Below are positions 5,248 to 50,604 of a stretch of 64,000 nucleotides of DNA, piece after piece (position 1 is the first letter of the stretch; every line of letters begins with the position of its first letter). Under the pieces are notes generated by a model. That model did no database searches, was not told the origin of the DNA, and saw only the letters and a program-made list of their open reading frames with translations. A program made the translations under genes and the position numbers. Where the stretch lies: assembly GCA_964588305.1 (NCBI GenBank), contig CAZPOP010000001.1:56736-120735 (forward strand). Direction: 5' to 3'. The stretch comes from an uncultured Ignavibacteria bacterium (GTDB lineage Bacteria > Zixibacteria > MSB-5A5 > SM1-73).

Positions 5248-5259
5248 CGGAGGAAGGCG

Positions 5260-6147
5260 ATGAAAACCTATTTAGATTGTGTCCCTTGCATAATTGAACA
5301 GACAATTAAAGCTGCCAGAGATTTGACCCAAGATTTGGAAAAACAGGAAAGCCTGTTACAGAAGGTATTGGAGATCCTCAGCAACATCTCCTACAACCAG
5401 TCTCCACCTTATCTGGGGAGAGAGGCACATCGGGTGATCCGCTCCATTCTGAATAATCCCGATCCTTATTCAAAACTGAAAAGACGGTTCAACCAGGTGG
5501 GGAAAGAGCTCTTTCCTTCCTTGCAGGAGCGGGTCAATGATTCGAAAGACCCGTTCGCCCAAGCAGTGAAGCTGGCCATTGCCGGTAACATCATCGATTT
5601 TGGTCCCCCGCATCACTTCGAGTTGAGAGAAACCATTGACAAAGCTTTGAAGGCGAAGCCTGCCATTGACCATACCGAGAGTTTAAGAGAAGACATAGAG
5701 TCAGCCTCGACCATCCTCTATCTGGGAGACAATGCTGGGGAGACCTTCTTTGACAGGATACTGATCGAACAAATGCCGGCCAAGGAGATTTACTTTGGGG
5801 TGAGGGGCAGTCCGGTGATAAACGATGCCACCTCGGAGGATGCCTACTGGGCGGGATTAGACAAAAGGACCAAGATCATCTCCAATGGCTCGGATGCCCC
5901 AGGAACCATACTTGAAGATTGTTCTAATGAATTCCAGGACCTCTTTGCCAGATCCGATCTGGTGATCGCCAAGGGACACGGAAACTACGAAACCTTAAGT
6001 GAGGTGCAGGGGAAAAGACTCTATTTCCTTCTCATGGTGAAGTGCGAAACCATAGCCAAGGATATTGGCTGTTCGGTCGGGGAATTCGTGGTCAAGAAAA
6101 CAGAGAGCGTCTTGGAGCCAAAGGCGCAGGCGCTTGGGAAAAAATGA
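5260..6147 (+). CDS. DUF89 / ARMT1-like (damage-control phosphatase family) protein
   Basis: The N-terminus MKTYLDCVPCIIEQ and overall size are typical of DUF89. RBS GGAGGAAGG is upstream. Confidence 0.6.
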   Translation: MKTYLDCVPCIIEQTIKAARDLTQDLEKQESLLQKVLEILSNISYNQSPPYLGREAHRVIRSILNNPDPYSKLKRRFNQVGKELFPSLQERVNDSKDPFAQAVKLAIAGNIIDFGPPHHFELRETIDKALKAKPAIDHTESLREDIESASTILYLGDNAGETFFDRILIEQMPAKEIYFGVRGSPVINDATSEDAYWAGLDKRTKIISNGSDAPGTILEDCSNEFQDLFARSDLVIAKGHGNYETLSEVQGKRLYFLLMVKCETIAKDIGCSVGEFVVKKTESVLEPKAQALGKK

Positions 6148-24659: not shown

Positions 24660-25253
24660 TTATTCTAGTTTGTCCAGTTCCTCCAAAACCAAGTCGGTTA
24701 GATCCAGAGTTTTCTTTGCGTATGCGATGTTGCCGTTGACCGAATCAAAGATCATGATGATGTTTTCCTCCGTGGCGATCTTTTCCAAAACCAGATTGAT
24801 CTTATCCAGGATCGGTTTGGTCAACTCCGCATTTCTCTTTTCCGCCTTTCCCCCCGGACCGAAGACGTCATTGGTGAATTTTTGGTACCTGCGCTGCTGA
24901 ACTTCCAGTGAATCCTCTTTCTCCTGTCGTTTGGCCTGGCTCAAGATGAGACTGGTTTTTTCCAAGTCCGCCTTCAGGCTGTCAATGGTCTTTCCCATCT
25001 GGGCGGCTTCATCCTCCCAGGTTTTCACATCCTGATCGAATTTTGCCTGGGCATCCTTGAACTCCTTAAATTCGGTTCTGAGACGCATGGAATCCACGTA
25101 ACCGATTCTCCCCTCCTGGGAGGACGTGGAACTGGGGAGAAACAAGACAAACGATATGATCAAGGCCAGGCAAAAAGCAGCCAATGACGAATGACCGATG
25201 ACGAATGGTACTAGACTTTTTCGCCCTGCCCAACTTCCGGTTCCTGACGGCAT
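24660..25253 (-). CDS. skp: OmpH/Skp-family periplasmic chaperone
   Basis: Signal/TM segment followed by a coiled-coil Lys/Glu-rich region. Sits between bamA and lpxD, the conserved position. Confidence 0.7.
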
Positions 25254-32931: not shown

Positions 32932-33149
32932 GACTCCTCCGAAAATTAGAAATTCAAAAAGAAAAATTCGAAAATTCCATCAAAAGATAAAAATCGTTGT
33001 TTAAGCAATGTTCTTTTCAAAATACCAAGTACCAACAGACGTTTTGCGCTTCTTCACAAACCAGGTGTAGGCACGCATATGGGTGCCAGACCAGGTCATG
33101 AAGTCGTAGCTTCTATAAATATTAATCTTCAATTTTGAATTGCAATTTT

Positions 33150-33224
33150 GCACTTCGTGCTGCCCTTCGGTTCCGCATTTCGTCCTGCCCTTCGGTCCCG
33201 CATTTCGTCCTGCCCTTCGGTCCC
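33150..33224. repeat. Three tandem copies of a 25-nt unit (GCATTTCGTCCTGCCCTTCGGTCCC)
   Basis: Direct tandem repeats in the tgt-yajC intergenic region. The first copy is slightly diverged. Confidence 0.85.
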
Positions 33225-33225
33225 G

Positions 33226-33299
33226 AGACCTCAGGGTCGAGGGAAGACTCAATGTCGAAGGAAGACCTCAGGGTCGAGGGAAGACTCAGTGTCGAAGGA
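33226..33299. repeat. Two tandem copies of a 37-nt unit (AGACCTCAGGGTCGAGGGAAGACTCARTGTCGAAGGA)
   Basis: Immediately follows the 25-nt array. One A/G difference between copies. Confidence 0.85.
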
Positions 33300-33324
33300 C
33301 ATTTTGCTTTTTCAGTTTTCAATT

Positions 33325-34536
<1,212 letters not shown>

Positions 34537-34584
34537 TCAAGGCGAGTCTCCGGTCGTTAGAAACCCCTTGAACTCTCGAAAGAT

Positions 34585-34671
34585 GTCATTCTGATCCCGC
34601 CGAGGCGGGAGAAGAATCTAAAACTTATGACATATTTAATTCATTAGATTCTTCACTTCGTTCAGAATGAC
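34585..34671. repeat. MITE/BIME-like element: GTCATTCTGA...GAAGAATCT unit and its inverted copy
   Basis: Left unit carries an inserted GC hairpin CCCGCCgagGCGGG. Right unit is AGATTCTTCacttcgTTCAGAATGAC. Lies in the tgt-downstream intergenic region. Confidence 0.65.
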
Positions 34672-34771
34672 AGAAGTGATATTTTCATCGTTGTAGCGTC
34701 CCGCCTTTGGCGGGATTACCCGCCACATCTCTGGGTTCGGGGTGAGGGCACCCCGAAACAACGGTAGCTAT

Positions 34772-35353
34772 TTAAATCCTTCCCTCGGTATATCCATACG
34801 CTCCCAAAGGACGAGACAATCCCCAATACTGTTGAGCCTTGGTGCAGTATGCCACCGGCTTCAATTTGGCAATGTCGGGACTACCTTTGCCGTCCAGATA
34901 CTCTGAATCTATGTGTGTGGCCAAAATCTCCCCGACGAAAAGATCGTGAGATCCCAAACTGGTGATGGTTCTGACCGCGCACTCAAGATTAATCGGGCAC
35001 TGGTCAATCAACGGCGCGTCCACCCTTGTTCCCTTGACTGGAGTCAGTTTTGTCTCCTTGAATTTGTCCACGCTCTTTCCCGATTTTATCCCGCAATAAT
35101 CGGTTTGCGGAAGCAACTTCTCGGTTATGACGTTGACCACGAACTCCTTTGACTCGGAGATGATGCCGTGCGAAAATCGTCCCTTTCTTATGGCTATGGT
35201 TATCATGGGCGGCTCGGAACATGCTATGCCCGACCAGGCGATGGTGATGATATTCGGCTTTTGGCCTTTCCTCTGACAGCTCACCATCACCACCGGCATG
35301 GGAATCAACATGGTCTGAGGTTCCAGTAGTTTTTTGGGCATCCCCTTCTCCAA
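34772..35353 (-). CDS. Flavin reductase-like (FMN-binding split barrel) family protein
   Basis: LIPMPVVMVSC...NIITIAWSG is the typical flavin_reduct N-terminus. Confidence 0.7.
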   Translation of the reverse strand: MEKGMPKKLLEPQTMLIPMPVVMVSCQRKGQKPNIITIAWSGIACSEPPMITIAIRKGRFSHGIISESKEFVVNVITEKLLPQTDYCGIKSGKSVDKFKETKLTPVKGTRVDAPLIDQCPINLECAVRTITSLGSHDLFVGEILATHIDSEYLDGKGSPDIAKLKPVAYCTKAQQYWGLSRPLGAYGYTEGRI

Positions 35354-35432
35354 GATTATTTGTCAATCGTGCAGTTCATTCCTCCTCAAGCTCGTCTTGT
35401 TTAACTGAGGTAACTTGAGAAGAAATAACAAC

Positions 35433-35472
35433 GTCAAGCAGTCCCCCGCCTCTGGCGGGAGACATGCTTGAC
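35433..35472. repeat. Hairpin element GTCAAGCA...TGCTTGAC carrying an internal CCCGCCtctGGCGGG hairpin
   Basis: 8-bp outer stem plus 6-bp GC inner stem. The same inner hairpin occurs in the GTCATTCTGA family. Confidence 0.6.
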
Positions 35473-35582
35473 CTGTGGTAACCGGTCAAGCTTCCGATCT
35501 CGACCAAAAGGAATTTCGAAAATCCCAATTCTTTTTAACCTCATCTGTTACAAAGGCTGAAACCCTAGTTCCACCACTGACA

Positions 35583-35882
35583 CTACATCTCCACCACTTC
35601 CTCGCCGCTGAAGGTATCCACCTGGCTCAAAAGCTCGGTTAGTCTGTTTCTGATGGCTTCCTTTGTTTTGCCGATCACCTCTTCTGCCTCTTCGGGAGCC
35701 TGACACTTGAGGGAGATGTTTATCTCGTCGAGCCTTCTGGTTCCAAGACCGTCGGAGGAGAAGTCCACAAAGGGCATCCCGAACTTCTCGATTTTTTGGG
35801 TTTCCTCTTCGTTGAAATCTACATTCTCAAAAGAGATGTGATATTCACCGGCCCTCAACAGCTTTGTTACTTTCAACCTCAT
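35583..35882 (-). CDS. Hypothetical protein (99 aa)
   Basis: ORF only. No recognisable motif. Confidence 0.3.
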   Translation of the reverse strand: MRLKVTKLLRAGEYHISFENVDFNEEETQKIEKFGMPFVDFSSDGLGTRRLDEINISLKCQAPEEAEEVIGKTKEAIRNRLTELLSQVDTFSGEEVVEM

Positions 35883-35979
35883 CTTTCCTCCTTTCAGCTA
35901 GATGCTGAGCAAGCGTTTCCTTTGAAGCTGCATCACGATGCCGTTATCCTGATGCGCAAATGCAACCACGGTGTCGGGA

Positions 35980-37371
35980 TCACGAAATCCCCGTACACCT
36001 AAATGCCTCCCTTACCGTCTTCACCCCGGCCAGCTTGATGTCGAATCGTTGATTCAAGGATTTCAGGTTACCTTGCGGGATGATACAGTTCTCAAAACCC
36101 AATTTTTCCGCCTCCTTTATCCTCCTTTCCATCTGGTTTACCGCACGCACCTCCCCTCCCAATCCCACTTCTCCGATTATAGCAGATTTATTATCTGCCG
36201 GGACGTCTTTGAAACTGGAGGCGATTGCCACCATAGTCCCCAAATCCACCGCTGGTTCCTCGGTCCTGACCCCCCCCGCCACGTTGACGAATACGTCGAA
36301 TGCTCCCAGGCCTATGTCCGCCCTCTTCTCCAGAATGGCCAAAAGCAAAGCCAATCTCTTGTAATCGATTCCCGAGCATACCCTCTGGGGCATGCCATAA
36401 CTGGAGGGAGAGACCAAAGCCTGCAATTCCAGAAGCAGAGGTCTGGTTCCCTCCAGAGTACATACCACCACAGAGCCGGAGATGTTCCTGGCCCTTTCGG
36501 AGAGGAACAAAAGCGAAGGATTCTCCACCTGACGAAGTCCCTTCTCCTGCATCTGAAATATACCGATTTCATTGGTGGAACCAAAACGATTCTTGACCGT
36601 TCTCAAAATTCGATAGATATGATTTTTTTCGCCTTCAAAATAGAGAACCGTATCCACCATGTGTTCTAATACTTTCGGCCCGGCGATGGAACCATCCTTG
36701 GTCACGTGCCCGACCAGAAACACCGAACTGCCGGTCTCCTTGGCGAAATTAATAAGACTGTGTGCGCATTCCCTGATCTGGCTTACGCTTCCCGGAGTGC
36801 TTTCCAGGTTTTGAGTGTAAGTAGTCTGGATCGAATCGATCACCACGATGAAGGGAACCTCCTGCTTTAAGACCTCCAGGATCAAATCAAGATTGGTTTC
36901 GGTCAAAATCTCGATTTTATCCGGGAGGATTCCTAGCCTTTCCGCCCGGAGTTTAATCTGCTTCAAAGACTCCTCTCCGGTAATATACAACACTTTGCCA
37001 CAATTCGAAGCATAAACCTTGTGGTTCATATCGGAGGTGATCTTTTCTGATATTTGCAGAAGCAGAGTCGATTTGCCGATCCCCGGATCTCCACCTACCA
37101 GAACCACTGATCCCCTGACGATCCCGCCTCCCACCACCCGGTCGAACTCCTTTAGACCAGTTTTGATTCTGTCTTCATCCCGAACGTCCACCTCGCCCAA
37201 GGGAATGGGAGCGATTTTTCGCCTTGCACCCGCTCTCTTGTGCCCCCTGACCCGCTCCTCGATCATGCTGTTCCAGGTACCGCAATCCGGACATTTCCCC
37301 ACCCAGCGCAGGGAGTGATGGCCGCAGCTCTGGCAGATATAAACTGTTTTGACTTTATTTGGGTTAAGCAT
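35980..37371 (-). CDS. radA: DNA repair protein RadA/Sms
   Basis: N-terminal C4 zinc finger (CQSCGHH...CPDCGTW), Walker A GDPGIGKST, Lon-like C-domain. Confidence 0.9.
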   Translation of the reverse strand: MLNPNKVKTVYICQSCGHHSLRWVGKCPDCGTWNSMIEERVRGHKRAGARRKIAPIPLGEVDVRDEDRIKTGLKEFDRVVGGGIVRGSVVLVGGDPGIGKSTLLLQISEKITSDMNHKVYASNCGKVLYITGEESLKQIKLRAERLGILPDKIEILTETNLDLILEVLKQEVPFIVVIDSIQTTYTQNLESTPGSVSQIRECAHSLINFAKETGSSVFLVGHVTKDGSIAGPKVLEHMVDTVLYFEGEKNHIYRILRTVKNRFGSTNEIGIFQMQEKGLRQVENPSLLFLSERARNISGSVVVCTLEGTRPLLLELQALVSPSSYGMPQRVCSGIDYKRLALLLAILEKRADIGLGAFDVFVNVAGGVRTEEPAVDLGTMVAIASSFKDVPADNKSAIIGEVGLGGEVRAVNQMERRIKEAEKLGFENCIIPQGNLKSLNQRFDIKLAGVKTVREAFRCTGIS

Positions 37372-37380
37372 AGGTCTTTT

Positions 37381-37415
37381 TTGTCCGTTGTCCGCCGTCC
37401 GCAGTCCGCCGTCTG
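37381..37415. repeat. Left inverted repeat flanking the four-helix-bundle gene
   Basis: TTGTCCGTTGTCCGCCGTCCGCAGTCCGCCGTCTG. Its partner lies at 37799..37828. Confidence 0.6.
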
Positions 37416-37422
37416 GCAGAAT

Positions 37423-37776
37423 CTACTTAAGCTTCTTCCTGAGTGCCTGCAACTTGGCGAACATTTTCTCACCGAAAACATAAGCGTCGTTAAAAACTCT
37501 CTCCTCAACATATTTCCTTCGCTTTGCCAGATGCAAACAACCGATAACCTCTATCAGAGACCTAATGGCGATGCCGATAAAGCGGTGAAACTCCATATTT
37601 GATTGACTGGTGGAACCTTCCGCGATATTTAAGGAACTAGAAGTGGCGGCTCTTAGCATTTGAGACGTTAAGTTATACTGCTCTTTTGCAGGTAATTTCT
37701 TGCTGATTTCGTATACCTTATCCGAATACTCTAGTGACAACTGCCACACTTCCAATTTTTCGAATTTAAAAGCCAC
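37423..37776 (-). CDS. Four-helix-bundle protein (23S rRNA intervening-sequence protein family)
   Basis: LEVWQ...A...NIAEG is the signature of the TIGR02436-type family. GTG start. Confidence 0.75.
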   Translation of the reverse strand: MAFKFEKLEVWQLSLEYSDKVYEISKKLPAKEQYNLTSQMLRAATSSSLNIAEGSTSQSNMEFHRFIGIAIRSLIEVIGCLHLAKRRKYVEERVFNDAYVFGEKMFAKLQALRKKLK

Positions 37777-37798
37777 GTCGATTCTCTTATCAGTCTTA

Positions 37799-37828
37799 CT
37801 GCGGACGGCCGACGGCGGACAACCGACG
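37799..37828. repeat. Right inverted repeat flanking the four-helix-bundle gene
   Basis: CTGCGGACGGCCGACGGCGGACAACCGACG. Its reverse complement shares GTTGTCCGCCGTC and CGTCCGCAG with the left copy. Confidence 0.6.
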
Positions 37829-37831
37829 TCT

Positions 37832-38578
37832 TCAGACTGCCGTTATAGGTCCCTGCCCGCTTCCTTCGATGAACTGCTTGACCACAGGATGATCGGTATC
37901 TTTCGTCTCATCCGGCGTTCCCACAAAGATGATCTTTCCTTCATATAGCATGGCGATGCGATCGGCTATTTTGTAAGCTGAGGTCATGTCGTGGGTGACG
38001 GCGATGGAAGTGATGGAGAGCGCATCTCGGCAGCTGACGATGAGCTCGTTTATCACGTCTGCCATGATCGGGTCCACGCCGGTGGTGGGCTCGTCGTAGA
38101 GAACGTACTCCGGATCCATGGCGATAGCTCGGGCCAGCCCCACCCTCTTTCTCATACCTCCTGAAAGCTCGGCCGGCTTTTTCTCTTCGATCCCGGAGAG
38201 CCCCACCAACTTCAAAGTCTTGGTGACTTTCTCTTTTATTTCCACTTCCGGCATTTTGGTGTGTTCCCTTAGGCCCAATCCCACGTTTTCATCCACGGTC
38301 ATGGAATCGAACAGGGCCGAGCCTTGAAAAAGCATTCCGAATTTCTGCCTCATTTGGTTCAATTGCCCATCGTTATACGCAGTTATATCTTCGCCGTCCA
38401 CCAGAACCTGTCCCCGGTCGGGTTTTAGAAGTCCAATGATGTGTTTCAGAAGGACGCTTTTCCCACAGCCACTTCTTCCTATGATCACCGTGGTTTCGCC
38501 CTTTTGGATATCCAAATCCACGCCTCGCAACACCTGATTCTCTCCGAAGTCCTTGTGTACGTCCTTGATTTCTATCAT
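37832..38578 (-). CDS. mlaF: ABC transporter ATP-binding protein, MlaF/Ttg2A-like
   Basis: GRSGCGKS Walker [15 protein letters not shown] signature, about 248 aa. The matching MlaE permease lies 3.8 kb upstream. Confidence 0.7.
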
Positions 38579-38596
38579 GCTCTTTTTCTAAAACTT

Positions 38597-39952
38597 CTAA
38601 AGGGTTTCACTTTCTATCGCCTCTTCCACTTTTCTTTTCGCCTCTTCCAATAATTCTTTCGCTTTTCTTCTTGCTTCATGAGATTGACGGACGAGTAAGG
38701 CGATTTCTTTCTGGATCTTATCAGGCATTATGGGAATTGTAATTCTCTTGAGAGACGCCTTCGGAACGGCAGTCAAAATCGTGCCTGCACATTGTTTTTT
38801 GAGTTGCGCTTGGAGAACTATACTTTTTGATAAAACCAATAACACCTCGGGAAGGATTTTTATATACCTGAACTGGAAAAAACCAGTAGAGGCTAAGGCT
38901 CCTTCATACGCTTGACCGACCAAGGCTACTTTCTCTAAAGAACCTTCCACGCTTGAAACTATTATGTCATTCTTTCTTAAAACCCTCCTCGCTCTGCTTG
39001 GGGCCTCTTCACCTTTTATCTCACTTACGCTGTTTACGACTCCAATAGAAGGGTCTATGTCAGCCAATTCGACATAAGAAAAGGTTTTATGGGGGTGTCT
39101 CATGGGATCAAAATCAGGCTTGATACTCTTAACATAATTTAACAACCACGAATGACCATTTTGATAATCCAATATGCATTTTATCACTTCTTCGTAAGCA
39201 GGCTGGAAATACTCAGCATCTGCACGATGAACTGCAAATGTTTTGGAAAGATTAGCAGTATAAGAAAGTTCGTATTTTGCCTTAAAATTGGTTAATCCTA
39301 ATTCTTCTAAAAGCAGGTTTTCAGCTTGCGAAAATAAATTACGCGAATCTTCAAGCAATATAGTGGCCTGTTTAGTTGTTTTCCCTATCTGCTCAGCATT
39401 CTTTATTTCGGGGATTAATAACTCTTCGATTTTTTCGATAAACAGATTCAATTGAACATTACCAGTTGACTCTCTGAATGCCTGGAATCTCCCGTATTTT
39501 GAATTGAGAAATGTCGATACATAAAATGGATCAAACTTCTTATTCTTTAACCGCACAATTCCAACATGCCTATCTGCATTAATTGGTAACATGCACGCTG
39601 AAACAACAGCAGTGTTGCCAATGGTGCCTACTGATGAAATAATTATGTCTCCGACACTTAATGAAGTTCTAAGATTTCTTTGGTGTTGCTCAGCAGAGAT
39701 GCGAGTATTTGCCGATAAGTCAAAATCATTATCTTGAACTGATTGAGCAGAGATTATTCTTATTTTGCTATTAGGATCATAGTCAATGGATGAATGAATC
39801 CCATCCGTGATTAAGGCAAAGCGTTTTAATGGTTTACTACTGATTTTGAGAAGTCTCTTTTCTAATTTTAGATATAATGGCTGATAATATTCAGCATCCA
39901 ACCTTTTGGTTCCTTTAAGATCAGATATATTAGATACACTTACCACAGCCAT
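38597..39952 (-). CDS. Restriction-modification specificity (S) subunit with two target-recognition domains
   Basis: 451 aa. Two TRD halves separated and terminated by conserved coiled-coil spacers (HsdS/BcgIB-like). Immediately downstream of a methylase gene. Confidence 0.75.
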   Translation of the reverse strand: MAVVSVSNISDLKGTKRLDAEYYQPLYLKLEKRLLKISSKPLKRFALITDGIHSSIDYDPNSKIRIISAQSVQDNDFDLSANTRISAEQHQRNLRTSLSVGDIIISSVGTIGNTAVVSACMLPINADRHVGIVRLKNKKFDPFYVSTFLNSKYGRFQAFRESTGNVQLNLFIEKIEELLIPEIKNAEQIGKTTKQATILLEDSRNLFSQAENLLLEELGLTNFKAKYELSYTANLSKTFAVHRADAEYFQPAYEEVIKCILDYQNGHSWLLNYVKSIKPDFDPMRHPHKTFSYVELADIDPSIGVVNSVSEIKGEEAPSRARRVLRKNDIIVSSVEGSLEKVALVGQAYEGALASTGFFQFRYIKILPEVLLVLSKSIVLQAQLKKQCAGTILTAVPKASLKRITIPIMPDKIQKEIALLVRQSHEARRKAKELLEEAKRKVEEAIESETL

Positions 39953-39955
39953 ATC

Positions 39956-42358
39956 TTAACCGCGCCAAAAATCGAAACTTTGCTCTTTGGCAAATTTAAC
40001 AAAAGCTTCTGCTATCTCATCCAAATCATGGTTTATTTCTGGGTGTTCATCTTTTCCGAGTACAAGCTCACCATTTGGGCCTTTTTTATATCTATATTCG
40101 CCACTCTCGTCTTTGACTGGTTTCTGATTTACAGCAAAGAATATAGGATAATCCATCTCTTTTATAACTTTGCCGTCAAGCCAGAATTTCTTGAACTGCT
40201 CGGTTATCTTTTCTTCATTCAAAACTAGATAAATTTGCCCTCCCAATACTCGCGCTGAGACTTCACGGCGAAGTTTTTTAAGTTTAATGTTTAAGATTTT
40301 GATTTCTTTGTTCAACTCTCTTTTTCTGTGATGTTGTGTGGTGCTGTCTAATTGTTTCTGTTTTTCTTCTAATATTTCTTGTAGTTCTTGTATCTCGTCA
40401 ATTACGGCCTTAATCGGCTTTGTCGCTTTTGTTTCCTTTTCTTCAGACTGTTCACCTTCTTCCGTCTCCTCTTCCTCCAATTCTTCTACAGTCCCAAAAT
40501 AAGTTTCAATGAAAGATTTTAGTTCCTCGGTGAGACCCTCTTCATTTGTGGGTTTAGCCCAGTTCACCCCCTTGTATTTGTCTTTCAGGTTTGCAATAAA
40601 ACCTTCCCATTCTCCCTCATACTTCGCTTTAGTTTCCTGAATTGTTTGCTTTTCTTTGTCTGTGTATTTCTGTAAGAATAAGACGCTGGTTTTTGTTCCA
40701 GTATGGGGTTTAAAGGAATTTCCATGCAAACCAACCACTGCTAAAATTCGAGCTTGGTCGATAACAAACCTACGAATATATTCAGCATTTGTGTTATTTA
40801 ATATGCCTTGGGGCAGAACGATAGCGATTCTACCGCCCTGTCGTATAAATTGGAGGCAGCGATTTAGAAAGAGAATATGTCTCCCTATTTTTTTCACTAA
40901 TTTACCATTTTTCTCAGCTAACTCATACAACCTTAAGATATCCTTTTCCTTGACAGTTCCCGCGAAAGGCGGATTAGTCATGAGAACATCAAAATCGAAG
41001 TATAGGAACTTGTCTTGATTTTCTCTGTCCTTTTCCGGCTCACCAAATCTGAAAAGTCTGGATCTCAATCCCGCCTTAGTTTCATCGTTCCAAGTTTGCG
41101 GTGCTAACGAGTTATCTTTGTACACATGAGATTTACCGTCTCCCACTATCAGATTAATAGCTTTTGCTATTTTTACTGCCTTTTTAGCAAAATCAATCCC
41201 CACAATATTGTTTTGGGCAAAATTCTTAGCGGCTGGCGGAAGCTCCTTGCCGGTAATAGCACCGCCAGCAACCCGCATAACAGAATGCAAAAGGAAACCA
41301 GCTGAGCCACATGCAGGGTCTATCACAAATTCGTCTGGCTTGGGATTGAGCATCTCCACAACCATATCTTCAACCGGTCTCGGTGTGAAGAATTGCCCTT
41401 CCTTTTTCTTAGATACTTGTGGAATTAGGTATTCAAACGCCTCATCAATTATTCGAAGATTTGAATTGAACAACTTTATCTTTTCCAGAAAGGAGACACA
41501 AACCTTTAAGTGTTCATCTCTGAGTTCTATTTTGTCTGTAGGTTCAAACACTCCGCTCCATTGTCTTTTTGCTCCTTCGAGTAGATTGCTTATCTCTCTT
41601 TTTATTTTCGCAGCACTTCTGTCACCTACATAAAATCCTAATTGGTAATTTTTGTCGTTTATTCCCTTTGTTTCATCATATAGTTTTGCATATATTAACT
41701 TAAAAATCTCTTCGAAGGGATCCACGCCAGCATTGCCTAGAACAAGTTCCTCGAGATCCAGGAGTATTTTCTTGAGTGTTGTTTTGCCTTGTCGCAATTC
41801 ATCATATTCCTCTAACCAACCTATGGTCCATCTTTCTGTGAGAATATCTATAAGTGTTTCTGTGACTCTTGGAATCCGTGGGATTTCTACAAAAATATTT
41901 GGCTTCTCGCGATGGAGCCGTATTATCTCATTCCCGTTAGACCATACTCCTATGGGGGCTCCCTCTGCGTTACAATAACTCTTCAGTTGTTCTAAACCGT
42001 CTGTTCTTTTTGGTCTTTTTACTTCGAATATTATATATGGATGTGTTAAGTCGTCATGTAAAACGAGAATATCGGCCAGTCCAGAATCCCGAGACCCAAA
42101 ATAAACTACTCTTTCAACGTCAATTCGATTCAGTGGGTAATGGTATTCGTGGAAAAGTCTTTTAATCCAAAGTTGCCTGACAATCTCTTCTGGTTTTGCC
42201 GGTTTATATTTATTTTTTACTTGACACTTGATAGCAAATTTTCCGTCCCTCTTTATTATTAGTCCCTCTATTTCCTTTATCTCTCTTGTAGTAAAAAGAG
42301 ACAAACCATGCTTAACATCAGGGGTGGAGAAAATCGTTTGGATCTTTCCGTTCGGCAT
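39956..42358 (-). CDS. N6-adenine DNA methyltransferase (gamma-class, HsdM/BcgIA-like) fused to an N-terminal PD-(D/E)xK nuclease-like domain
   Basis: FxGxG-type motif DPACGSAGFL, then NPPFAG. The N-terminal ~170 aa contain ADILVLHDD...IIFEVKRPK (D...E.K). The C-terminus is an acidic coiled-coil. The locus has no helicase/HsdR gene. Confidence 0.7.
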   Translation of the reverse strand: MPNGKIQTIFSTPDVKHGLSLFTTREIKEIEGLIIKRDGKFAIKCQVKNKYKPAKPEEIVRQLWIKRLFHEYHYPLNRIDVERVVYFGSRDSGLADILVLHDDLTHPYIIFEVKRPKRTDGLEQLKSYCNAEGAPIGVWSNGNEIIRLHREKPNIFVEIPRIPRVTETLIDILTERWTIGWLEEYDELRQGKTTLKKILLDLEELVLGNAGVDPFEEIFKLIYAKLYDETKGINDKNYQLGFYVGDRSAAKIKREISNLLEGAKRQWSGVFEPTDKIELRDEHLKVCVSFLEKIKLFNSNLRIIDEAFEYLIPQVSKKKEGQFFTPRPVEDMVVEMLNPKPDEFVIDPACGSAGFLLHSVMRVAGGAITGKELPPAAKNFAQNNIVGIDFAKKAVKIAKAINLIVGDGKSHVYKDNSLAPQTWNDETKAGLRSRLFRFGEPEKDRENQDKFLYFDFDVLMTNPPFAGTVKEKDILRLYELAEKNGKLVKKIGRHILFLNRCLQFIRQGGRIAIVLPQGILNNTNAEYIRRFVIDQARILAVVGLHGNSFKPHTGTKTSVLFLQKYTDKEKQTIQETKAKYEGEWEGFIANLKDKYKGVNWAKPTNEEGLTEELKSFIETYFGTVEELEEEETEEGEQSEEKETKATKPIKAVIDEIQELQEILEEKQKQLDSTTQHHRKRELNKEIKILNIKLKKLRREVSARVLGGQIYLVLNEEKITEQFKKFWLDGKVIKEMDYPIFFAVNQKPVKDESGEYRYKKGPNGELVLGKDEHPEINHDLDEIAEAFVKFAKEQSFDFWRG

Positions 42359-42411
42359 TTTTCACCCGATCAATCAATATTTTGATTAATTTGATTGTGC
42401 ATAATAAGTCT

Positions 42412-43164
42412 TTATCCAAAGAGAATCGAAGCCACCACGTAATCTGCTATGAGTATCAGAACCGATGCTACAACCACGGCCTTGGTAGCCGATCTTCCCA
42501 CGCCTTCCGCTCCCCCTGTGGTTCTAAATCCCTGATAACAGCCAATGATTGAGATTATGCCGCCGAAGACGAAGGCCTTCAAAAGTCCGGAGGTCAAATC
42601 CATCATTTTGAAAAAACTTTTTAAGCCATTGAAAAAGGTATACGGCGAGACGTGCAGGGAAACTGTCGATACCCCCAGTCCTCCCAGTATGGCGATGGCA
42701 TCCGCAAAGACGGTGAGTACCGGAAGCATAATCAACCCAGCCACGAATCGGGGTACCACCAGGTATTCCACCGGATCCAAGGCTAAAGTCTCCAGGGCAT
42801 CGATCTGTTCGGTTACTTTCATGGTACCCAATTCAGCCGCTATCGCAGCCCCTACCCTTCCCGCCACCACCAGAGCGGTCAACACCGGCGCCAGCTCGAT
42901 CATCACCGCCTTGCCTACAGCCGTACCTATATACCTCATGGGGACGTAATCCGATATTTGGTAGACTGCTTGAACCGCGGTTACGGCTCCGGTGAAAATG
43001 GAGACCAAAACAACCAGAGGAAGAGAATTTACGCCCATCACCAGCATCTGCTCGGTGGTGAGCCGGGACCTGGTGAAAACGCTGGGCAGACCCAGAAAGG
43101 TTCTTCTGATCAGTATTGCCAGTCCGCCCACGTTCTCAACAAACGAAAGGGCCTTCCTTCCCAC
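42412..43164 (-). CDS. mlaE: ABC transporter permease, MlaE family
   Basis: 250 aa polytopic protein. The N-terminus is VGGLAILIRRTFLGLPSVF...TTEQMLVMGVNSLPLV. Confidence 0.75.
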   Translation of the reverse strand: MGRKALSFVENVGGLAILIRRTFLGLPSVFTRSRLTTEQMLVMGVNSLPLVVLVSIFTGAVTAVQAVYQISDYVPMRYIGTAVGKAVMIELAPVLTALVVAGRVGAAIAAELGTMKVTEQIDALETLALDPVEYLVVPRFVAGLIMLPVLTVFADAIAILGGLGVSTVSLHVSPYTFFNGLKSFFKMMDLTSGLLKAFVFGGIISIIGCYQGFRTTGGAEGVGRSATKAVVVASVLILIADYVVASILFG

Positions 43165-43273
43165 GAAGGTGAAAGCGTTGTCTTGAGTGGTGAAAAGCCT
43201 CGTCTTATTCTCCTTTACAAGGTTTAAGGTGAAGGGTGTAAGGTTAAGTCCCCACCCTTCTCGCCTTTGCCTG

Positions 43274-43319
43274 GCTCACCTATTTATGGTGAGCTTATCG
43301 AACGGAAGGTGAACACTCC
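43274..43319. repeat. Hairpin GCTCACCtatttatGGTGAGC followed by GGTGAACACTCC motif
   Basis: Lies between mlaE start and dnaB stop. Shares the GGTGAACACTCC tail with the 21564 element. Confidence 0.4.
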
Positions 43320-43631
43320 GAATTCCTTCTCTCCCAGCAACGCGACGAATTTACCTGTCCACTCGTATAGGCATACAGTCGTGCCTACAAAGAAGGTTTC
43401 TGTTTTCATCGGTTAGCGGTGTAGGTTTAGATTCGCTTCACTCACTACAAGTCGACTACGTATCGTATCCCGTCTGTGGGTTTCGTCTACCGTATTTCGG
43501 TCGATAGACGTGTGACGAGGACTCTTCAGACGATACGTGACCGAGGCCGTAACCTCCCAAAACGAAAACCCAAGATGCAACAGTTATTTAATTGTCAAAG
43601 CAGCAGACACCTACTTAAACCTCTCGTCTTC

Positions 43632-45011
43632 TTAGAACGGTACTTCCTTATGGATAAACTCCATATTTTCAAACCTGGCGTAGTCCTTTATGAAGGTTAA
43701 TCTGAGGTCTCCGGTGGGACCGTTGCGGTGTTTGCTCACAATTATCTCGGCCACCCCTTCGGCCGGGGCTCCGTCTCTGAACTTTTCTATGCCGTAGAAT
43801 TCGGGGCGATAGACGAAAACCACCACGTCCGCATCCTGTTCGATGGCTCCGGATTCACGCAAATCGGCAAGCATGGGCCTTTTATCTCCGCCTCGATCCT
43901 CCACCTTTCTAGAAAGCTGTGACACCGCAATTACCGGAACTTCGAGCTCCTTGGCCAATCCCTTCAGTGATCGGGAGATCATGGAAATCTCCTGTTGTCT
44001 GGACTCCGATCTCTTGGGTCCCTGCATCAGTTGCAGGTAATCCACGATGACCAATCCCACGTTATGTTGAGCCTTGAGCCTTCTGGCTTTTGCCCGCATC
44101 TGGAGGATTCCCAGATTGGGGGTGTCGTCTATGAATATCTTGGACTCGGCCAAAGGCCCCACCGCCACTGCCAGGTTACTGTATTCATGGTCGCTGATTC
44201 TTCCGGTTCTCATCTTATGGGTGGAAAAGCGCGCCCGGCTGCACAGCATCCTCTGTGCCACCTGGCTTTTTGCCATCTCCAGGCTGAAAACTCCCACCGG
44301 GACTTTCTCTTCGATAGCTAAGTGCTCGGCAACGGATAAACAGAAGGCGGTTTTTCCCATGGAGGGACGGCTGGCCACCACGATGAGATCCGAATTTTGC
44401 AGTCCTCCGGTCAAGGTATCCAATTCGACGAAACCGGTGGGGAGCCCGGTGACCATCCCCCCTTTCTTCTGGTATTCCTCTATGGCTTCAAAAGTGTGCG
44501 GAAGAAGCTCGCCGACCGAGACAAATCCCTCCTTTATTCTTTTCTCGGAGATGCTGAAAATCACCTGTTCTGCCCGATCCAGAAGATCGTCCACCTCCAG
44601 GCTGGCGTCGTAACATTGCGAGACTATCTGGGTGGAGGTGTCGATCAACTTTCGCAGGGTGGCTTTTTCTAAGACGATGTTGGCATGATACTCTATGTTG
44701 GCGGTGGTGGCGATTCTTTCGGTCAACTCCAGAAGGTATACCCTCCCCCCCACGTTATCCAGTTCTTTTCTTCTGGCTAATTCATCCGAAACCGTGATGA
44801 TGTCTACCGGCTGGTTCTTATCATACAGATCCACCACAGCAGAGAATATCTTCTGATGGTCGTCCCGATAAAAGGAATCCTTCTCGATTATCTCCACCGC
44901 CTTTCCGATAGCTTCTTTATCCAGAAGCATTGCGCCCAAGACCGCCTGTTCTACTTCGACGGACTGCGGAGGGATTCTCTCATGTGGTGATGTGTCTTTT
45001 CGGTCTACCAT
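43632..45011 (-). CDS. dnaB: Replicative DNA helicase DnaB
   Basis: N-terminal domain (PPQSVEVEQAVLGAMLLD) and RecA-like domain with GSRPSMGKTAF Walker A. Confidence 0.9.
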   Translation of the reverse strand: MVDRKDTSPHERIPPQSVEVEQAVLGAMLLDKEAIGKAVEIIEKDSFYRDDHQKIFSAVVDLYDKNQPVDIITVSDELARRKELDNVGGRVYLLELTERIATTANIEYHANIVLEKATLRKLIDTSTQIVSQCYDASLEVDDLLDRAEQVIFSISEKRIKEGFVSVGELLPHTFEAIEEYQKKGGMVTGLPTGFVELDTLTGGLQNSDLIVVASRPSMGKTAFCLSVAEHLAIEEKVPVGVFSLEMAKSQVAQRMLCSRARFSTHKMRTGRISDHEYSNLAVAVGPLAESKIFIDDTPNLGILQMRAKARRLKAQHNVGLVIVDYLQLMQGPKRSESRQQEISMISRSLKGLAKELEVPVIAVSQLSRKVEDRGGDKRPMLADLRESGAIEQDADVVVFVYRPEFYGIEKFRDGAPAEGVAEIIVSKHRNGPTGDLRLTFIKDYARFENMEFIHKEVPF

Positions 45012-45041
45012 GTAGGCCTCATATCAATTGAGAATGACAAG

Positions 45042-46310
45042 CTAATTCAGGTTTGGGAAATGAAAGGCAATCACTGCTAGTTTGACCTCTCGACTTTCGT
45101 CACCTGGCAGGTGAAAACGAAAATTGAACCATGACTCTTCGGTTTTGCCGGAAAGATCGAGATAGTCCTCATGTTCTTTCGTACGGTTTTCTACAACTTC
45201 GAGCACTGACGAGAAACCTTTGTTTCGCACAAAGAGAATCACAGCTGCTTTCGAGTCTCGCCAAGTCAAATAACCTAGCAGTTGAGAAATTGCTTTCATA
45301 TATTCTTTTATGCCCTCCCAGAACTTGCATTCTGCCACAAAGACATTTTTGTTCTCATGACGGATCAAAATGTCAGTTTTTCCGCTCTTGTTGAATGTCT
45401 CACCAGTCGCCGCTCCTTCAAACCAGGGCCCAAGTTGCATAAGAAAATGATCCCGTAAAGCCTCTTCGTTCTTTTGATCATAGGTGGCCGGCAGGCGCTC
45501 TAAAGCTTTGCCAAAATCATAAATAATCTTAAGAATATCGTTGTAGACTTGGATGTCGAGGGTCGGCTCTGGTGAAAAACCCCCTGATTGCGTGCTGGGT
45601 TTCTTTATTAGTTGTCTCTTCGCTGGTGCAGCGGGAATCGCAAACGTCTCGGGAACATCCTTACGTTTCCGTACTGGAACACCGAGACTGGCCACGAAAT
45701 TCCTCTGTTTCAGGATGTTTTGTTTGCGCCCTTGGAATAGGTTGCTGACCAAGGTCCGGAGTTGCGAATTATAGGAGCTGACCTGTCCCGCTACGCTTGC
45801 GTGTTGCTGTTGAATCAGCCTTATTCTCTCATCGGCTTCCCTTTTTATTTTCTCCGCATCCCCATATAAGTCTGGAATCTTAAAGCAAATGCACCCTTCT
45901 TCTATCATTACCTCATAGGTCATCATAGCAAAGGCGCTTGGCCGACATCGCAGGAGATCAACGTCTCCGCTGAACGGCAAATGGTACTTTATGACCTGTC
46001 GTGGATGTGTGCCGCTTCTGTTAACGAAATGGACTTCTCGTGGAAAGCGCGCTTTAGGTATTTGCTCCTCAGCTGTCGTTACATACTTCCCGGCGAAGTC
46101 GATTTCTAGGTTGTCAACTCTGAATTCTTCTCTCAAATACTCGATATACTGGTTCTCGTTCACGTTCAAAATATAGTCCTCATCTTCCGATTTTATTTTT
46201 CCTCGGAGTCTTTCAGTGTTTGCATCTAAGTAGTCACTTAGTTGAATGTTCCAAAAGATACTGAAGCCTCCCGTATTCCTAAAGGACATGCTCCTCTCCC
46301 TCCCCTTCAC
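45042..46310 (-). CDS. Hypothetical protein with C-terminal PD-(D/E)xK nuclease-like core
   Basis: GKTDILIRHENKNVFVAECKFWEG is a canonical D-x(n)-E-x-K motif. The N-terminal ~300 aa is unrecognised. Single gene between dnaB and udg. Confidence 0.4.
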   Translation of the reverse strand: MKGRERSMSFRNTGGFSIFWNIQLSDYLDANTERLRGKIKSEDEDYILNVNENQYIEYLREEFRVDNLEIDFAGKYVTTAEEQIPKARFPREVHFVNRSGTHPRQVIKYHLPFSGDVDLLRCRPSAFAMMTYEVMIEEGCICFKIPDLYGDAEKIKREADERIRLIQQQHASVAGQVSSYNSQLRTLVSNLFQGRKQNILKQRNFVASLGVPVRKRKDVPETFAIPAAPAKRQLIKKPSTQSGGFSPEPTLDIQVYNDILKIIYDFGKALERLPATYDQKNEEALRDHFLMQLGPWFEGAATGETFNKSGKTDILIRHENKNVFVAECKFWEGIKEYMKAISQLLGYLTWRDSKAAVILFVRNKGFSSVLEVVENRTKEHEDYLDLSGKTEESWFNFRFHLPGDESREVKLAVIAFHFPNLN

Positions 46311-48442: not shown

Positions 48443-50572
48443 CTATTTCAAAAGCAGCATTTTCTTCGTCTCCGAGACCACCGTTTCATTTCTTTCCACG
48501 GTAAGCTTATAGAAGTAGATGCCGCTTGCGACACGCTCTCCGGCGTTCCCCTTTCCATCCCACGTAATCGTATAAGCACTTGAGGGCTGGAATCCATGTA
48601 CAAGTGTCCTGATTTCCTGACCCAACAGGTTATATATCTTGAGCGTAACCTGGCTGCGCTTGCTTAGCGCGTACTCGATAGTCGTCTGAGGATTGAACGG
48701 ATTGGGAAAATTCTGCGCCAGATCGAAATCTTTGGGAGAGCCGACGAATTCGTCGTCATCCTCTTCTACCGACGTACAACCGCCGTTTGTGGTGTGCAGG
48801 ATTGTGCCATACTCGCCTACGGCCCAACCGGTGCTGGTATCCGTAAAACAGACGCTGTAAAGCCAATTCGAAGTTCCGGAGCTCTGCGCGTCCCAGTTGC
48901 TTCCACCATCAGTGGTGTGTATGATCGTGCCGGAGGCTCCTACCGCCCAACCCTTACCGACATCGATGAAACAGACGCTTTCGAGGTAGTTGAAAGTTCC
49001 AGAATCCTGAACGGCCCAGTTGCCTCCTCCATCGGCGGTGTGTAAGATTATACCGTCCCCACCCACTATCCACCCAGTGTCGGCATCGGTGAAGTAGACG
49101 CTATTGAGCCGCAGGGAAGTTCCAGAACTTTGAGGACTCCAGTTACCCCCAGCATTGATGGTGTGCAAGATTGTGCCGGAATCTCCTGAAACCCAGCCGA
49201 CATCGGCGTCTATGAAATACACGCAATAAAGCCACTGGGAAGTTCCGGAATTTTGGGCATCCCAACTGCTTCCCCCGTCGGTGGTCTGTAAGATTACGCC
49301 GGAATCTCCTACTGCCCAGCCAGTATCGCCGTCCGAGAAATATACACCGTAAAAATGATCTGAAGTTCCAGGAGTTTGAGCATCCCAGTGGCCACCTTGA
49401 TCGGTGGTGCGTAAGATCGTGCTGTCCAAACCTGCCGCCCAACCAGTGCTGTCGTCTGCAAAATGGATACTGAAAAGGTGACTAAAAGTTCCAGAGCTAT
49501 CGGCATGCCAGCTGCTGCCTTTATCGGTGGTGTGTAAGATCGTGCCAAAATCCCCTGCTGCCCAGCCAGCGCTGTCATCTGTGAAACAAACACTCCTCAG
49601 GTGATTTGGGGTCCCGGAAGTTTGACGATTCCAGTGGTCCCCTTCGTCTGCGGTCTTTAAGATGGTACCGCCGTATCCTACCGTCCAGCCCGTAGTGGCG
49701 TCCGCGAAATAGACGCCATTCAGACCACTTGACGCTCCGGAAGTCTGAGCATCCCAGTCGGCACCGCCGTTGGTGGTGTGCAAGATCGTACCGTACTCTC
49801 CTACTGCCCAGCCGGCATCGGCATCTACAAAATAGACGCCGAAAAGCGGCTGTAAAGTTTCGGAAGTCTGAGGACTCCAGTTGCCTCCGCTATTGGTGGT
49901 GTAAAGGATCGTGCCTGCCTCCCCTACTGCCCAGCCAGCACTGGCGTCCGCAAAATAGACGCCGTTAAGCCACTCCAGAATTCCAGAAGTCTGAGCATCC
50001 CAGTTGCTTCCCCCATTGGCGGTGTGTAGGATCGTCCCTGAATCTCCTACTGCCCAGCCGGTATCGGCATCCACAAAATAGACACCGTAAAACGATTGGT
50101 TAGTTTCCGATGTCTGAGGATTCCACTTGCTTCCACCGTTTGTGGTGTGCACGATTACGCCACTCTGTCCGACTGCCCAGCCGTTATCGGCATCCGTAAA
50201 ATAGACGCTCTTGAGGCGATTGGGAGTCTCGGAATCCTGAGGATCCCAATTGTCCCCACCGTCGGTGGTGTGCAGTATCGTGCCATGATCACCTACTATC
50301 CACCCGGTATCGGCATTCATGAAATGGACACCGAAAAGGTGACTTGACGTTCCGGAACTCTCAGGACTCCAGCTGCTTCCGCCGTCTGTGGTGTATAAGA
50401 TCGTCCCAACATCTCCTACCGCCCAGCCAGTATCGTCGTCTGTGAAAAAAACACTCCAAACGGTATTACCCTGAAGCAGAGGATTCTGCCAGTGCCAGCC
50501 TTGCTGGGCATAGCTCGTGGCTGCCACAAGCGTCAATCCCAAAATTATCAAGATTCTCTTGAACAAAACCAC
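48443..50572 (-). CDS. Secreted Ycf48/BNR-like repeat beta-propeller protein with T9SS C-terminal sorting domain
   Basis: Signal peptide. About 14 repeats of GTILHTTDGGxxWxxQxSGT...L..V.F.D...GWAVG. C-terminal FPNPFNPQTTIEY...LKIYNLLGQEI...GIYFYKL is the T9SS CTD. Confidence 0.75.
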   Translation of the reverse strand: MVLFKRILIILGLTLVAATSYAQQGWHWQNPLLQGNTVWSVFFTDDDTGWAVGDVGTILYTTDGGSSWSPESSGTSSHLFGVHFMNADTGWIVGDHGTILHTTDGGDNWDPQDSETPNRLKSVYFTDADNGWAVGQSGVIVHTTNGGSKWNPQTSETNQSFYGVYFVDADTGWAVGDSGTILHTANGGSNWDAQTSGILEWLNGVYFADASAGWAVGEAGTILYTTNSGGNWSPQTSETLQPLFGVYFVDADAGWAVGEYGTILHTTNGGADWDAQTSGASSGLNGVYFADATTGWTVGYGGTILKTADEGDHWNRQTSGTPNHLRSVCFTDDSAGWAAGDFGTILHTTDKGSSWHADSSGTFSHLFSIHFADDSTGWAAGLDSTILRTTDQGGHWDAQTPGTSDHFYGVYFSDGDTGWAVGDSGVILQTTDGGSSWDAQNSGTSQWLYCVYFIDADVGWVSGDSGTILHTINAGGNWSPQSSGTSLRLNSVYFTDADTGWIVGGDGIILHTADGGGNWAVQDSGTFNYLESVCFIDVGKGWAVGASGTIIHTTDGGSNWDAQSSGTSNWLYSVCFTDTSTGWAVGEYGTILHTTNGGCTSVEEDDDEFVGSPKDFDLAQNFPNPFNPQTTIEYALSKRSQVTLKIYNLLGQEIRTLVHGFQPSSAYTITWDGKGNAGERVASGIYFYKLTVERNETVVSETKKMLLLK
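49567..50572. repeat. About 1-kb near-identical direct repeat (copy 1) covering the N-terminal third of the first T9SS propeller gene
   Basis: Identical 83-aa antisense ORFs at 50096..50347 and 52504..52755 demonstrate at least 252 nt of perfect identity. Protein N-termini are near-identical for ~335 aa. Confidence 0.8.
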
Positions 50573-50604
50573 CTCCTGTCTGATTTCTTCCGTCTCACTT
50601 TTCC

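Follow-up and report, generated by a model that had tools for sequence, protein, structure and literature searches.

Why does a gene of the 23S rRNA-intervening sequence protein family (PF05635) stand between two protein-coding genes, and what are the inverted repeats that bracket it there? The question is raised by a stretch of 64,000 nucleotides (the window; contig CAZPOP010000001.1, positions 56,736 to 120,735) from an uncultured member of Zixibacteria, in which a small cassette of this kind fills the spacer between an mlaF-like gene and radA. A first-pass annotation of the sequence had described it as a four-helix-bundle gene within GC-rich inverted repeats, and as a selfish rRNA-type cassette transposed or retained outside rRNA. 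We report here that the protein belongs to this family and has its fold, that the two arms are inverted arrays of heptamers able to pair with each other, and that this anatomy is conserved in the family as well as in real rRNA intervening sequences (IVSs). The window copy has been retained vertically under purifying selection. What is new is thus the IVS-type cassette in an mRNA spacer, while the protein family and the rRNA IVSs are known.

The gene and its heptamer arms

The product of the cassette gene matched the PF05635 profile with an E value of 6e-29 (100.8 bits, cut-off 33.8) and the profile of four helix bundle proteins, TIGR02436, with an E value of 7e-28 (96.9 bits, cut-off 24). Together with the identification of both flanking genes, these matches confirm the GTG-started four-helix-bundle gene that had been placed between radA and mlaF. 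The N-terminus MAFKFEKLEVW is kept in 30 homologues, most of which carry an ATG at the identical position, and the GTG is hence the right start. An exact-sequence database look-up of the protein gave no match; the nearest record (P0002) is 99% identical, with an annotation that is 12 codons shorter. The AlphaFold monomer model (pLDDT 96.7) is a four-helix bundle made of four long helices, and its TM scores are 0.97 to XCC0516 (2GSC), 0.83 to BT_0352 (2RLD) and 0.77-0.80 to Avd (4DWL, 8UB7; 0.80 for 4DWL). XCC0516 and BT_0352 were also matched by sequence (E 7e-21 and 5e-10, respectively), and the crystal entries 2GSC and 2RLD contain five chains each. PADLOC returned no defence-system match for the protein.

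Selection on the gene was evaluated with its orthologues. The ratio of nonsynonymous to synonymous divergence (dN/dS) was 0.06 between the window gene and the orthologue in L039 and 0.09 between those in L040 and L041, while in the remaining comparisons, where synonymous sites are saturated, the proportion of nonsynonymous differences (pN) was 0.15-0.18. Moreover, the alignment of 30 homologues holds 27 invariant columns, and the reading frame is unbroken in all orthologues. By these measures the window gene is functional and under strong purifying selection, and a decaying pseudogene was rejected on the low dN/dS, the invariant columns and the intact frames.

The two arms (37383-37412 and 37798-37827, 30 nt) are 87% complementary, and the two motifs that the first-pass annotation had quoted, GTTGTCCGCCGTC and CGTCCGCAG, both occur in both arms. 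That they are inverted repeats therefore stands; "GC-rich", by contrast, is too loose a description, since they are more exactly two tandem heptamer arrays in opposite orientation, of about four units each, with the conserved core GACSRHN and its complement. Tandem Repeats Finder (TRF) reported a period of 7 with 3.4 copies of GTCCGCC at 37390-37413 and a period of 14 at 37801-37828. With up to 2 mismatches, GTCCGCCGTCCGC occurs six times in the 64 kb, always within the arms, as compared with an expectation of 0.77, and none of 100 shuffles reached six. The two arms also make up two of the four GAC/GTC chains in the window, where 1.6 are expected by chance. When joined by a short loop, they folded into a stem of about 26 bp at -52.7 kcal/mol, as compared with -27.6 +/- 3.0 kcal/mol for shuffled sequences (z -8.3). 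The terminal stem was likewise present in both the minimum free energy and the centroid fold of the whole 469-nt element (z -3.9), so the flanks do pair as the first-pass annotation had anticipated, in the full-length fold too. As motif counts and fold energies lie far beyond those of the shuffles, a chance origin of the arms was rejected.

The ability to pair is kept in the orthologues even though their heptamers differ. For instance, the heptamers of L044 are GTCCGTG/CACGGAC where those of the window are GTCCGCC/GGCGGAC. All six orthologues that were checked form stems of about 30 bp with energies of -43 to -56 kcal/mol despite their differing heptamers, and compensatory changes were found at 6 of the 21 consensus pairs of the orthologue arms. 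The orthologue leaders carry AAGAGG or AGGAGG with an ATG start, as against AAGAGA with GTG in the window. The parts of the cassette and its two neighbours are listed in Table 1.

Table 1. Coordinates in the window of the cassette features and the flanking genes
Feature	Position	Strand	Description
mlaF-like ABC transporter ATPase gene	37832..38578	-	upstream, co-directional; syntenic in all Zixibacteria relatives
5' arm	37798..37828	-	sense GTCGGTT GTCCGCC GTCGGCC GTCCGCA G; about four GTC-type heptamers; starts 3 nt past mlaF stop codon
Leader, 5' arm to GTG	37777..37797	-	TAAGACTGATAAGAGAATCGAC; weak Shine-Dalgarno-like AAGAGA
Four-helix-bundle coding sequence	37423..37776	-	117 aa, GTG start, TAG stop; PF05635 / TIGR02436
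Short spacer, stop codon to 3' arm	37414..37422	-	
3' arm	37383..37413	-	sense GACGGCG GACTGCG GACGGCG GACAACG GAC; four to five GAC-type heptamers (consensus GACSRHN); ends 11 nt before radA ATG
radA	35980..37371	-	downstream, co-directional; TIGR00416, 596 bits (cut-off 403)

Heptamer arrays across the family and in rRNA

A metagenome scan gave 80 loci encoding 50-90% identical proteins, 68 of which, the window included, have at least 100 nt on both sides of the gene. At 49 of these 68 loci, GAC recurs at least three times with a 7-nt period on one flank, and GTC at least three times with the same period on the other. Among 814 window pairs drawn at random from these contigs, none showed this arrangement. 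The same count with a period of 6 nt found no locus, and with a period of 8 nt three. When all 64 trinucleotides were scanned, GAC alone behaved in this way (39 loci, with 6 for the next best), and the heptamer consensus was G-A-C-S-R-H-N. Arrays of four units are the commonest on either side. Chains of GAC and GTC were counted because a strict period-7 self-match detector was too stringent for degenerate heptamers. Real and control pairs could not be told apart by the RNAduplex energies of their 100-nt flanks (median -57 vs -42 kcal/mol, with wide overlap), and a local-alignment inverted-repeat score was adopted in their place; at a threshold of 24 or more it picked out 45 of the 68 loci and 2 of 435 controls. 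The own-arm score of the loci had a median of 29.5, as compared with 16 when arms of different loci were paired. The heptamer flavour varies from locus to locus and is common to both arms of a locus.

The GAC-type array lies 5' of the open reading frame (ORF) in 42 loci and the GTC-type array in 7. The cassette gene is co-directional with both neighbours at 34 of 44 loci, and the median distance from the upstream stop codon to its start is 64 nt. The first-pass annotation had named relatives with the gene but without repeats as the observation that would count against it; the orthologues at the same junction and the 49 loci all have arrays. At six loci (L073, L094, L099, L105, L109 and L110), arrays with an 8-nt period, GGACTTCC / GGAAGTCC, take the place of heptamers, with GAC still present.

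The same anatomy was found inside rRNA. A locus of Azospirillum lipoferum (L128), obtained by tblastn of plasmids, was identified by Rfam as large subunit rRNA (835.8 bits). Its PF05635 ORF is preceded by AGGACGG ATGACAG AGGACGG AGGACAG, and then come CCGTCCT CTGTCTT CTGTCAT CCGTCTT; together, the two arrays make a terminal stem that runs without interruption for 25 bp or more. In the IVS of Coxiella burnetii, GACAGAT is repeated three times before the ORF, the terminal stem has 28 bp, and RNase III cuts in vitro at the first repeat; the ORF is reported to be degenerating and its protein is apparently not made (PMC4990558). Being built like the Azospirillum and Coxiella elements, the window cassette has the anatomy of an ORF-bearing rRNA IVS, but in an mRNA spacer. 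Rfam gave no family match in 33000-45500, and the cassette does not lie within helix 25 or 45 of 23S rRNA. An rRNA-type architecture outside rRNA, as initially proposed, is thus borne out by the shared arms, stem and ORF.

Inverted heptamer arrays on both flanks were also seen in 7 of ten plasmid homologues that are 30-37% identical, from cyanobacteria, Riemerella and the Azospirillum rRNA IVS. They include (GTAGGGA)8 / (TCCCTAC)5 between ribonucleotide reductase genes in Nostoc, GGTGACA / TGTCACC between cas6 and cas4 in Anabaena, GGGTGTA / CTACACC after a phage-integrase-family gene in Calothrix, GGTTCAA / TTGAACC after an Fe-S cluster assembly accessory gene in Riemerella, and inverted arrays between cas10 and cmr3 in Picosynechococcus. 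The arrays are direct on both sides in Pseudanabaena (between cas6 and cas4) and in Gemmatirosa (unannotated record), and the copy on pCC7120gamma of Nostoc PCC 7120 has an array on one side only. Three cyanobacterial plasmids (L120, L121 and L122) thus carry their cassettes at cas gene junctions. The "23S rRNA IVP" has been listed as associated with CRISPR adaptation modules (PMC10910872), and passenger insertions may explain this association.

The sites of the family are accordingly scattered (mlaF-radA, wzm-wzt, cas6-cas4, cas10-cmr3 and rRNA helix 45). Hence such cassettes have reached many spacers over evolutionary time, and there is no sign of recent movement of the window copy. An identical 118-aa homologue (P0111) was observed on 24 contigs (L130-L135), always with a wzm-type permease gene on one side and, on the other, a radical-SAM gene that lies upstream of wzt. 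In Xanthomonas campestris (XCC0516-XCC0517), a four-unit GGGAATC-type array lies 6 nt from accB (bccP) and overlaps the annotated start of XCC0516; it is one of 186 such arrays in that genome, listed by the authors without comment (supplement of PMC4692102). Beyond a local remark on Coxiella, we found no literature that links PF05635 genes with heptamer arrays, subscription literature lying outside the search, and the family-wide association appears to be undescribed so far.

Arrays also occur away from the gene. On the 80 contigs, 28 further GAC/GTC arrays of at least four units were counted in 240 kb, as compared with 0.2 expected. On L064, gene-free inverted pairs at 2333-2611 and 5601-5834 bound spacers of 165-225 nt between metabolic genes, and on L047 an epimerase ORF runs through the inverted GAC/GTC arrays at 1411-1484. 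In 50 kb of a Nostoc plasmid, 16 period-7 arrays were counted, several of them in empty inverted pairs, and the two strongest flank a four-helix-bundle gene. In the window there is one further GAC-type array (25183-25216; ATGACGA ATGACCG ATGACGA), which lies near the bamA-skp junction and has no inverted partner.

The mlaF-radA junction in Zixibacteria

Is the window copy a recent arrival or an old resident? The upstream ATPase has MlaF as its best NCBIfam match (215 bits, under the equivalog cut-off of 441 bits), and its gene adjoins that of the MlaE permease (PF02405) in relatives. Nine relatives have the common gene order dnaB-mlaE-mlaF-radA-flavin reductase-tgt. In seven further genomes (L039-L045, with RadA 72-84% identical), the cassette gene and arms of like kind occupy the identical mlaF-radA junction. 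The cassette protein is 90% identical to that of L039, while the identity of MlaF, RadA, MlaE and DnaB is 81-90%. Because of this retention at one junction in seven other genomes, the neighbour-like divergence and the low dN/dS, the sequence comparison indicates that the window copy is an old, vertically kept and functional resident, neither a recent insertion nor a pseudogene. Of the idea of a selfish cassette "transposed or retained", therefore, retention is supported by these genomes and by purifying selection; the selfish and transposed parts are not, the identical homologue being confined to a single context.

A comparison of this junction in related genomes, which had been proposed as a check, revealed three states: it is occupied in the seven genomes, carries a remnant in one, and is free of the gene in distant Zixibacteria, where other heptamers are found. 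In L001, the genome with the most similar RadA (85%), positions 2125-2210 still hold the 5' arm, a Shine-Dalgarno sequence (AGGAGG) and the ten initial codons of the gene, after which come a GC-rich hairpin, CCCTCTCCCCAAAGGGGAGAGGG, and unrelated sequence. The unrelated sequence after the first ten codons marks this piece of L001 as a deletion remnant of the cassette. The remoter Zixibacteria (RadA 64-66%) lack the gene and have other heptamer runs in the mlaF-radA spacer.

Several further observations were made at this junction. In L002-L008 and L031, tandem heptamers follow directly past the mlaF stop codon without the gene, among them ATGACGA x3 in L004, GGAAGAT and GGTTCAA-like units in L008, and GTAGCNN runs in L007 and L031. 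The Zixibacteria-like L006 carries a 1.4-kb insertion in the same spacer (4633-6000), with 69-aa helix-turn-helix and 258-aa proteins encoded on the opposite strand. The mlaF-radA junction thus seems to be a recurrent landing site. In L042 and L045, a second array of the 5'-arm type lies between the ORF and the true 3' arm, from which an alternative short local hairpin could form.

The surroundings of the cassette offered no machinery for mobility. No transposase or recombinase was found in the cassette or next to it, the window holds a single copy, and no consistent target-site duplication was seen in the flanks of the window copy or its orthologues. An integron-type cassette was rejected, since neither an integrase nor an attC-like single site is present. 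Within 4 kb on either side (33325-42358), the characterised genes are tgt, a flavin reductase gene, a 99-aa ORF without a Pfam match, radA, the mlaF-like gene and genes for S and M subunits; there is no reverse transcriptase among them, template and variable repeats not having been searched for. Neither sigma-70-like promoters nor intrinsic terminators were detected in 37200-38700, a scan that is uninformative for promoters of other types.

Upstream of the mlaF-like gene, a low-GC island (38597-42358; 35-40% vs about 50%) splits the mlaE-mlaF pair. It codes for two proteins, one a Type I-like specificity subunit of 451 aa and the other a methyltransferase of 800 aa whose N-terminal domain is HSDR_N_2; no restriction subunit was found in this stretch. 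The island is absent in all relatives, where mlaE and mlaF are adjacent. Just downstream of tgt (33149-33299), two tandem arrays adjoin each other, a 25-mer x3 and then a 37-mer x2; their apparent partial complementarity suggests another repeat-built hairpin. Tandem repeats of 123/246 bp in three blocks (49677-52843; 68-78% matches) presumably encode repeated domains of large proteins.

Possible mechanism and comparison with known systems

How could such a cassette work in an mRNA spacer? The account that we put at even chances is that it behaves as its rRNA counterparts do: it would be transcribed together with its neighbours, its stem would be cut by RNase III, and its arrays would be bound by the pentameric product. 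According to this account, the functional PF05635 gene lies in the loop of a long-range hairpin whose arms are the inverted arrays of about four heptamers each. The spacer between mlaF and radA is taken up by the cassette, all three genes run in the same direction, and no promoter- or terminator-like site was found around the cassette; hence a single mlaF-[cassette]-radA transcript is the most likely form of expression. In this RNA the arms would pair into a duplex of about 26 bp, which by analogy with the homologous rRNA elements would be a substrate of RNase III. Cleavage would free the ORF-bearing loop as an mRNA of its own and separate the flanking messages. The rRNA precedent, the co-directional spacers, the stable stem and the compensatory changes are what favour a transcribed cassette with an RNase III-cuttable duplex.

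The PF05635 family is large and structurally solved, and to our knowledge Avd is its sole characterised relative. By homology, the window protein would be an Avd/XCC0516-like homopentamer that binds structured nucleic acid. In the Avd pentamer, all five protomers bind an RNA stem-loop, with flipped-out bases inserted between protomers (bioRxiv 10.1101/2023.10.23.563531). Because Avd binds such a stem-loop, and because the core of the arrays is strictly periodic and conserved in sequence, the arrays themselves could be what the pentamer binds, either to regulate its own expression or to protect the transcript that encodes it.

Several observations weigh against this account. A helix that is selected at the RNA level is normally expected to show an excess of G.U over A.C mismatches. 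On the sense strand, however, the arm mismatches numbered 36 G.U vs 35 A.C, and 59 vs 83 under a looser alignment. RNA-level selection is therefore not demonstrated, and the complementarity could stem from a DNA-level process or from conservation of the motif in each arm. The mismatches are also periodic, with rates of 31% and 35% at heptamer positions 4 and 7 and of 2-3% in the GAC core, and many of them are C.C or G.G at the S position. These periodic mismatches and the conserved core, together with the 7-nt period, the preference for four units, the polarity bias and the loci with direct arrays, point to each arm being constrained as a motif and not solely as a pairing partner. Furthermore, the window copy is of the less frequent polarity, in which GTC-type units precede the ORF; the seven loci of this kind are the window, four orthologues, L089 and L104. 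The arrays are direct rather than inverted in about 5 of the 68 close loci and 2 of the 10 distant ones, and 8 of the 68 have none. At 10 of the 44 loci the gene is not co-directional with both neighbours, and the promoter scan covers the sigma-70 type only.

The most serious rival, which we consider possible though distinctly less probable, takes the arrays primarily as RNA or DNA binding sites for the pentamer or another factor. The stem would then be a by-product without a role for RNase III here, and the protein would have as its targets the flanks of its own gene as well as arrays elsewhere in the genome. Pairing alone does not require a GACSRHN core at a strict 7-nt period, and the intact core with mismatches at positions 4 and 7, the absence of a G.U bias, the polarity bias of 42 to 7, the four-unit preference and the direct arrays on both sides of some loci all fit a binding site. 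So do the different heptamers that go with distant protein subfamilies, the gene-free arrays (28 in 240 kb, and 16 on the Nostoc plasmid stretch), the contact of Avd with RNA via all five protomers, and the position of XCC0516 next to (GGGAATC)4, one of 186 arrays (PMC4692102). Yet nucleic-acid binding within the family is known for Avd alone, a member from diversity-generating retroelements (DGRs), and a single further GAC-type array in 64 kb would leave little for a trans-acting factor to do. Besides, the heptamer in Nostoc and Xanthomonas is the general repeat of the host, and could reflect where such genes survive. A broader idea, which we offer as a tentative one, is that PF05635 pentamers and heptamer arrays form one system, exemplified by STRR in cyanobacteria, GGGAATC in Xanthomonas, GGACCGG in Geobacter and GACSRHN here. 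The protein would specifically bind, and possibly maintain or spread, inverted array hairpins that are scattered over many bacterial genomes, its own gene would sit inside one of them, the rRNA IVSs would be a special case in rRNA loops, and the CRISPR links would be passenger insertions into cas operon spacers. This idea is drawn from the resemblance of the gene-free dispersed arrays to the way that RAYT genes live among REPs.

The remaining explanations are weaker to differing degrees. It is improbable that a DNA-level mobile element, moved by transposition or site-specific recombination, has the arms as its terminal inverted repeats, or that the arms are kept alike by template switching at a hairpin or cruciform. 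Inverted termini do bound the element, the family is scattered over unrelated spacers, the loss in L001 left a remnant, the strand-symmetric mismatch spectrum fits a DNA-level process, and earlier authors proposed that IVSs arose by transposition (PMC4990558). Nevertheless, the transposase, recombinase and consistent target-site duplication that such an element should show were not found in or beside the cassette or in the flanks of its orthologues, and there is a single copy in the window. The gene also occupies one site in eight genomes, with a divergence equal to that of neighbouring housekeeping proteins, and the genes next to the identical homologue do not change across the 24 contigs. 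It is very improbable that the small gene is unrelated to the repeats and lies between them by accident, the repeats being a generic intergenic hairpin of this genome or a simple-sequence repeat (REP-like, stabilising an mRNA, or produced by slippage). Heptanucleotides are the commonest long simple-sequence repeats in many bacteria, according to Mrazek 2007 as cited in PMC4679880 and PMC4692102; the distant Zixibacteria have other heptamer runs in the gene-free spacer, and empty inverted arrays exist in L064, L047 and L129. Such a repeat, however, would not be gene-specific (49 of 68 loci vs 0 of 814 controls), nor would its association with the gene be conserved across phyla and into rRNA, nor would its arms account for half of the four GAC/GTC chains in the 64 kb, where chance predicts 1.6. 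Hardly credible, lastly, is an ORF that is a decaying relic, as proposed for Coxiella, next to an RNA element that alone matters. The GTG start and weak Shine-Dalgarno sequence of the window copy, the loss of the gene in L001 and the apparent lack of the Coxiella protein (PMC4990558) would suit a relic. A dN/dS of 0.06-0.09, a nonsynonymous divergence of just 0.15-0.18 where synonymous sites are saturated, 27 invariant columns in 30 homologues and an intact frame in all orthologues would not.

By itself, the locus is a well-behaved resident cassette of a known protein family. More widely, the data show that the gene is accompanied by its inverted heptamer arrays from one phylum to another, whether in rRNA or not. 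This would tie the function and origin of the orphan PF05635 family and of the ORF-bearing rRNA IVSs to the unexplained excess of heptanucleotide tandem repeats in many bacterial genomes. A caution follows as well: the "associations" of the family with CRISPR, restriction-modification and other operons may reflect a habit of settling in operon spacers.

The closest known systems are the ORF-bearing 23S rRNA IVSs of Coxiella burnetii and Leptospira, together with the Azospirillum element. Like the window cassette, they carry a PF05635 ORF in the loop of a terminal-repeat stem, have tandem heptamers with a GAC/GTC core in their arms (GACAGAT x3 in Coxiella, four units on each side in Azospirillum), and measure about 430-490 nt with a stem of about 26-28 bp. 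In contrast, the window cassette lies between protein-coding genes and not in rRNA, and in this position no host RNA depends on excision for its function. Its polarity is the opposite one (GTC-type 5' of the ORF), its ORF is under strong purifying selection while that of Coxiella is reportedly degenerating, and RNase III cleavage is here proposed by analogy.

XCC0516 (2GSC) and BT_0352 (2RLD) share the S23p, or four-helix-bundle, family and fold with the window protein; theirs are five-chain crystal entries, whereas the window protein was modelled as a monomer. The gene of XCC0516 is likewise abutted by a four-unit heptamer array, between accB (bccP) and its own start, but the heptamer is GGGAATC and no partner array is listed on the other side. 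Avd, the accessory variability determinant of DGRs (4DWL, 8UB7), has the same fold and is a positively charged RNA-binding pentamer; its sequence identity is merely 11-15%, and no reverse transcriptase stands among the characterised genes within 4 kb of the cassette. In REPtrons, RAYT genes lie between inverted copies of REP sequences, which occur throughout the genome. The resemblance, a gene inside an inverted pair of short repeats with gene-free copies elsewhere (on related contigs and the Nostoc plasmid), is an analogy only: a small helical bundle replaces the Y1 transposase, tandem heptamer arrays replace single palindromes, and dispersal is not evident in the window. Finally, the heptanucleotide simple-sequence repeats described from other bacteria (STRR, GGGAATC in Xanthomonas, GGACCGG x4 in Geobacter metallireducens and TAACTGA in Beggiatoaceae) are intergenic, often of four units and sometimes in inverted pairs, just as here. 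We found no link to PF05635 genes in those studies, whereas the arrays of the window are a matched inverted pair that encloses such a gene.

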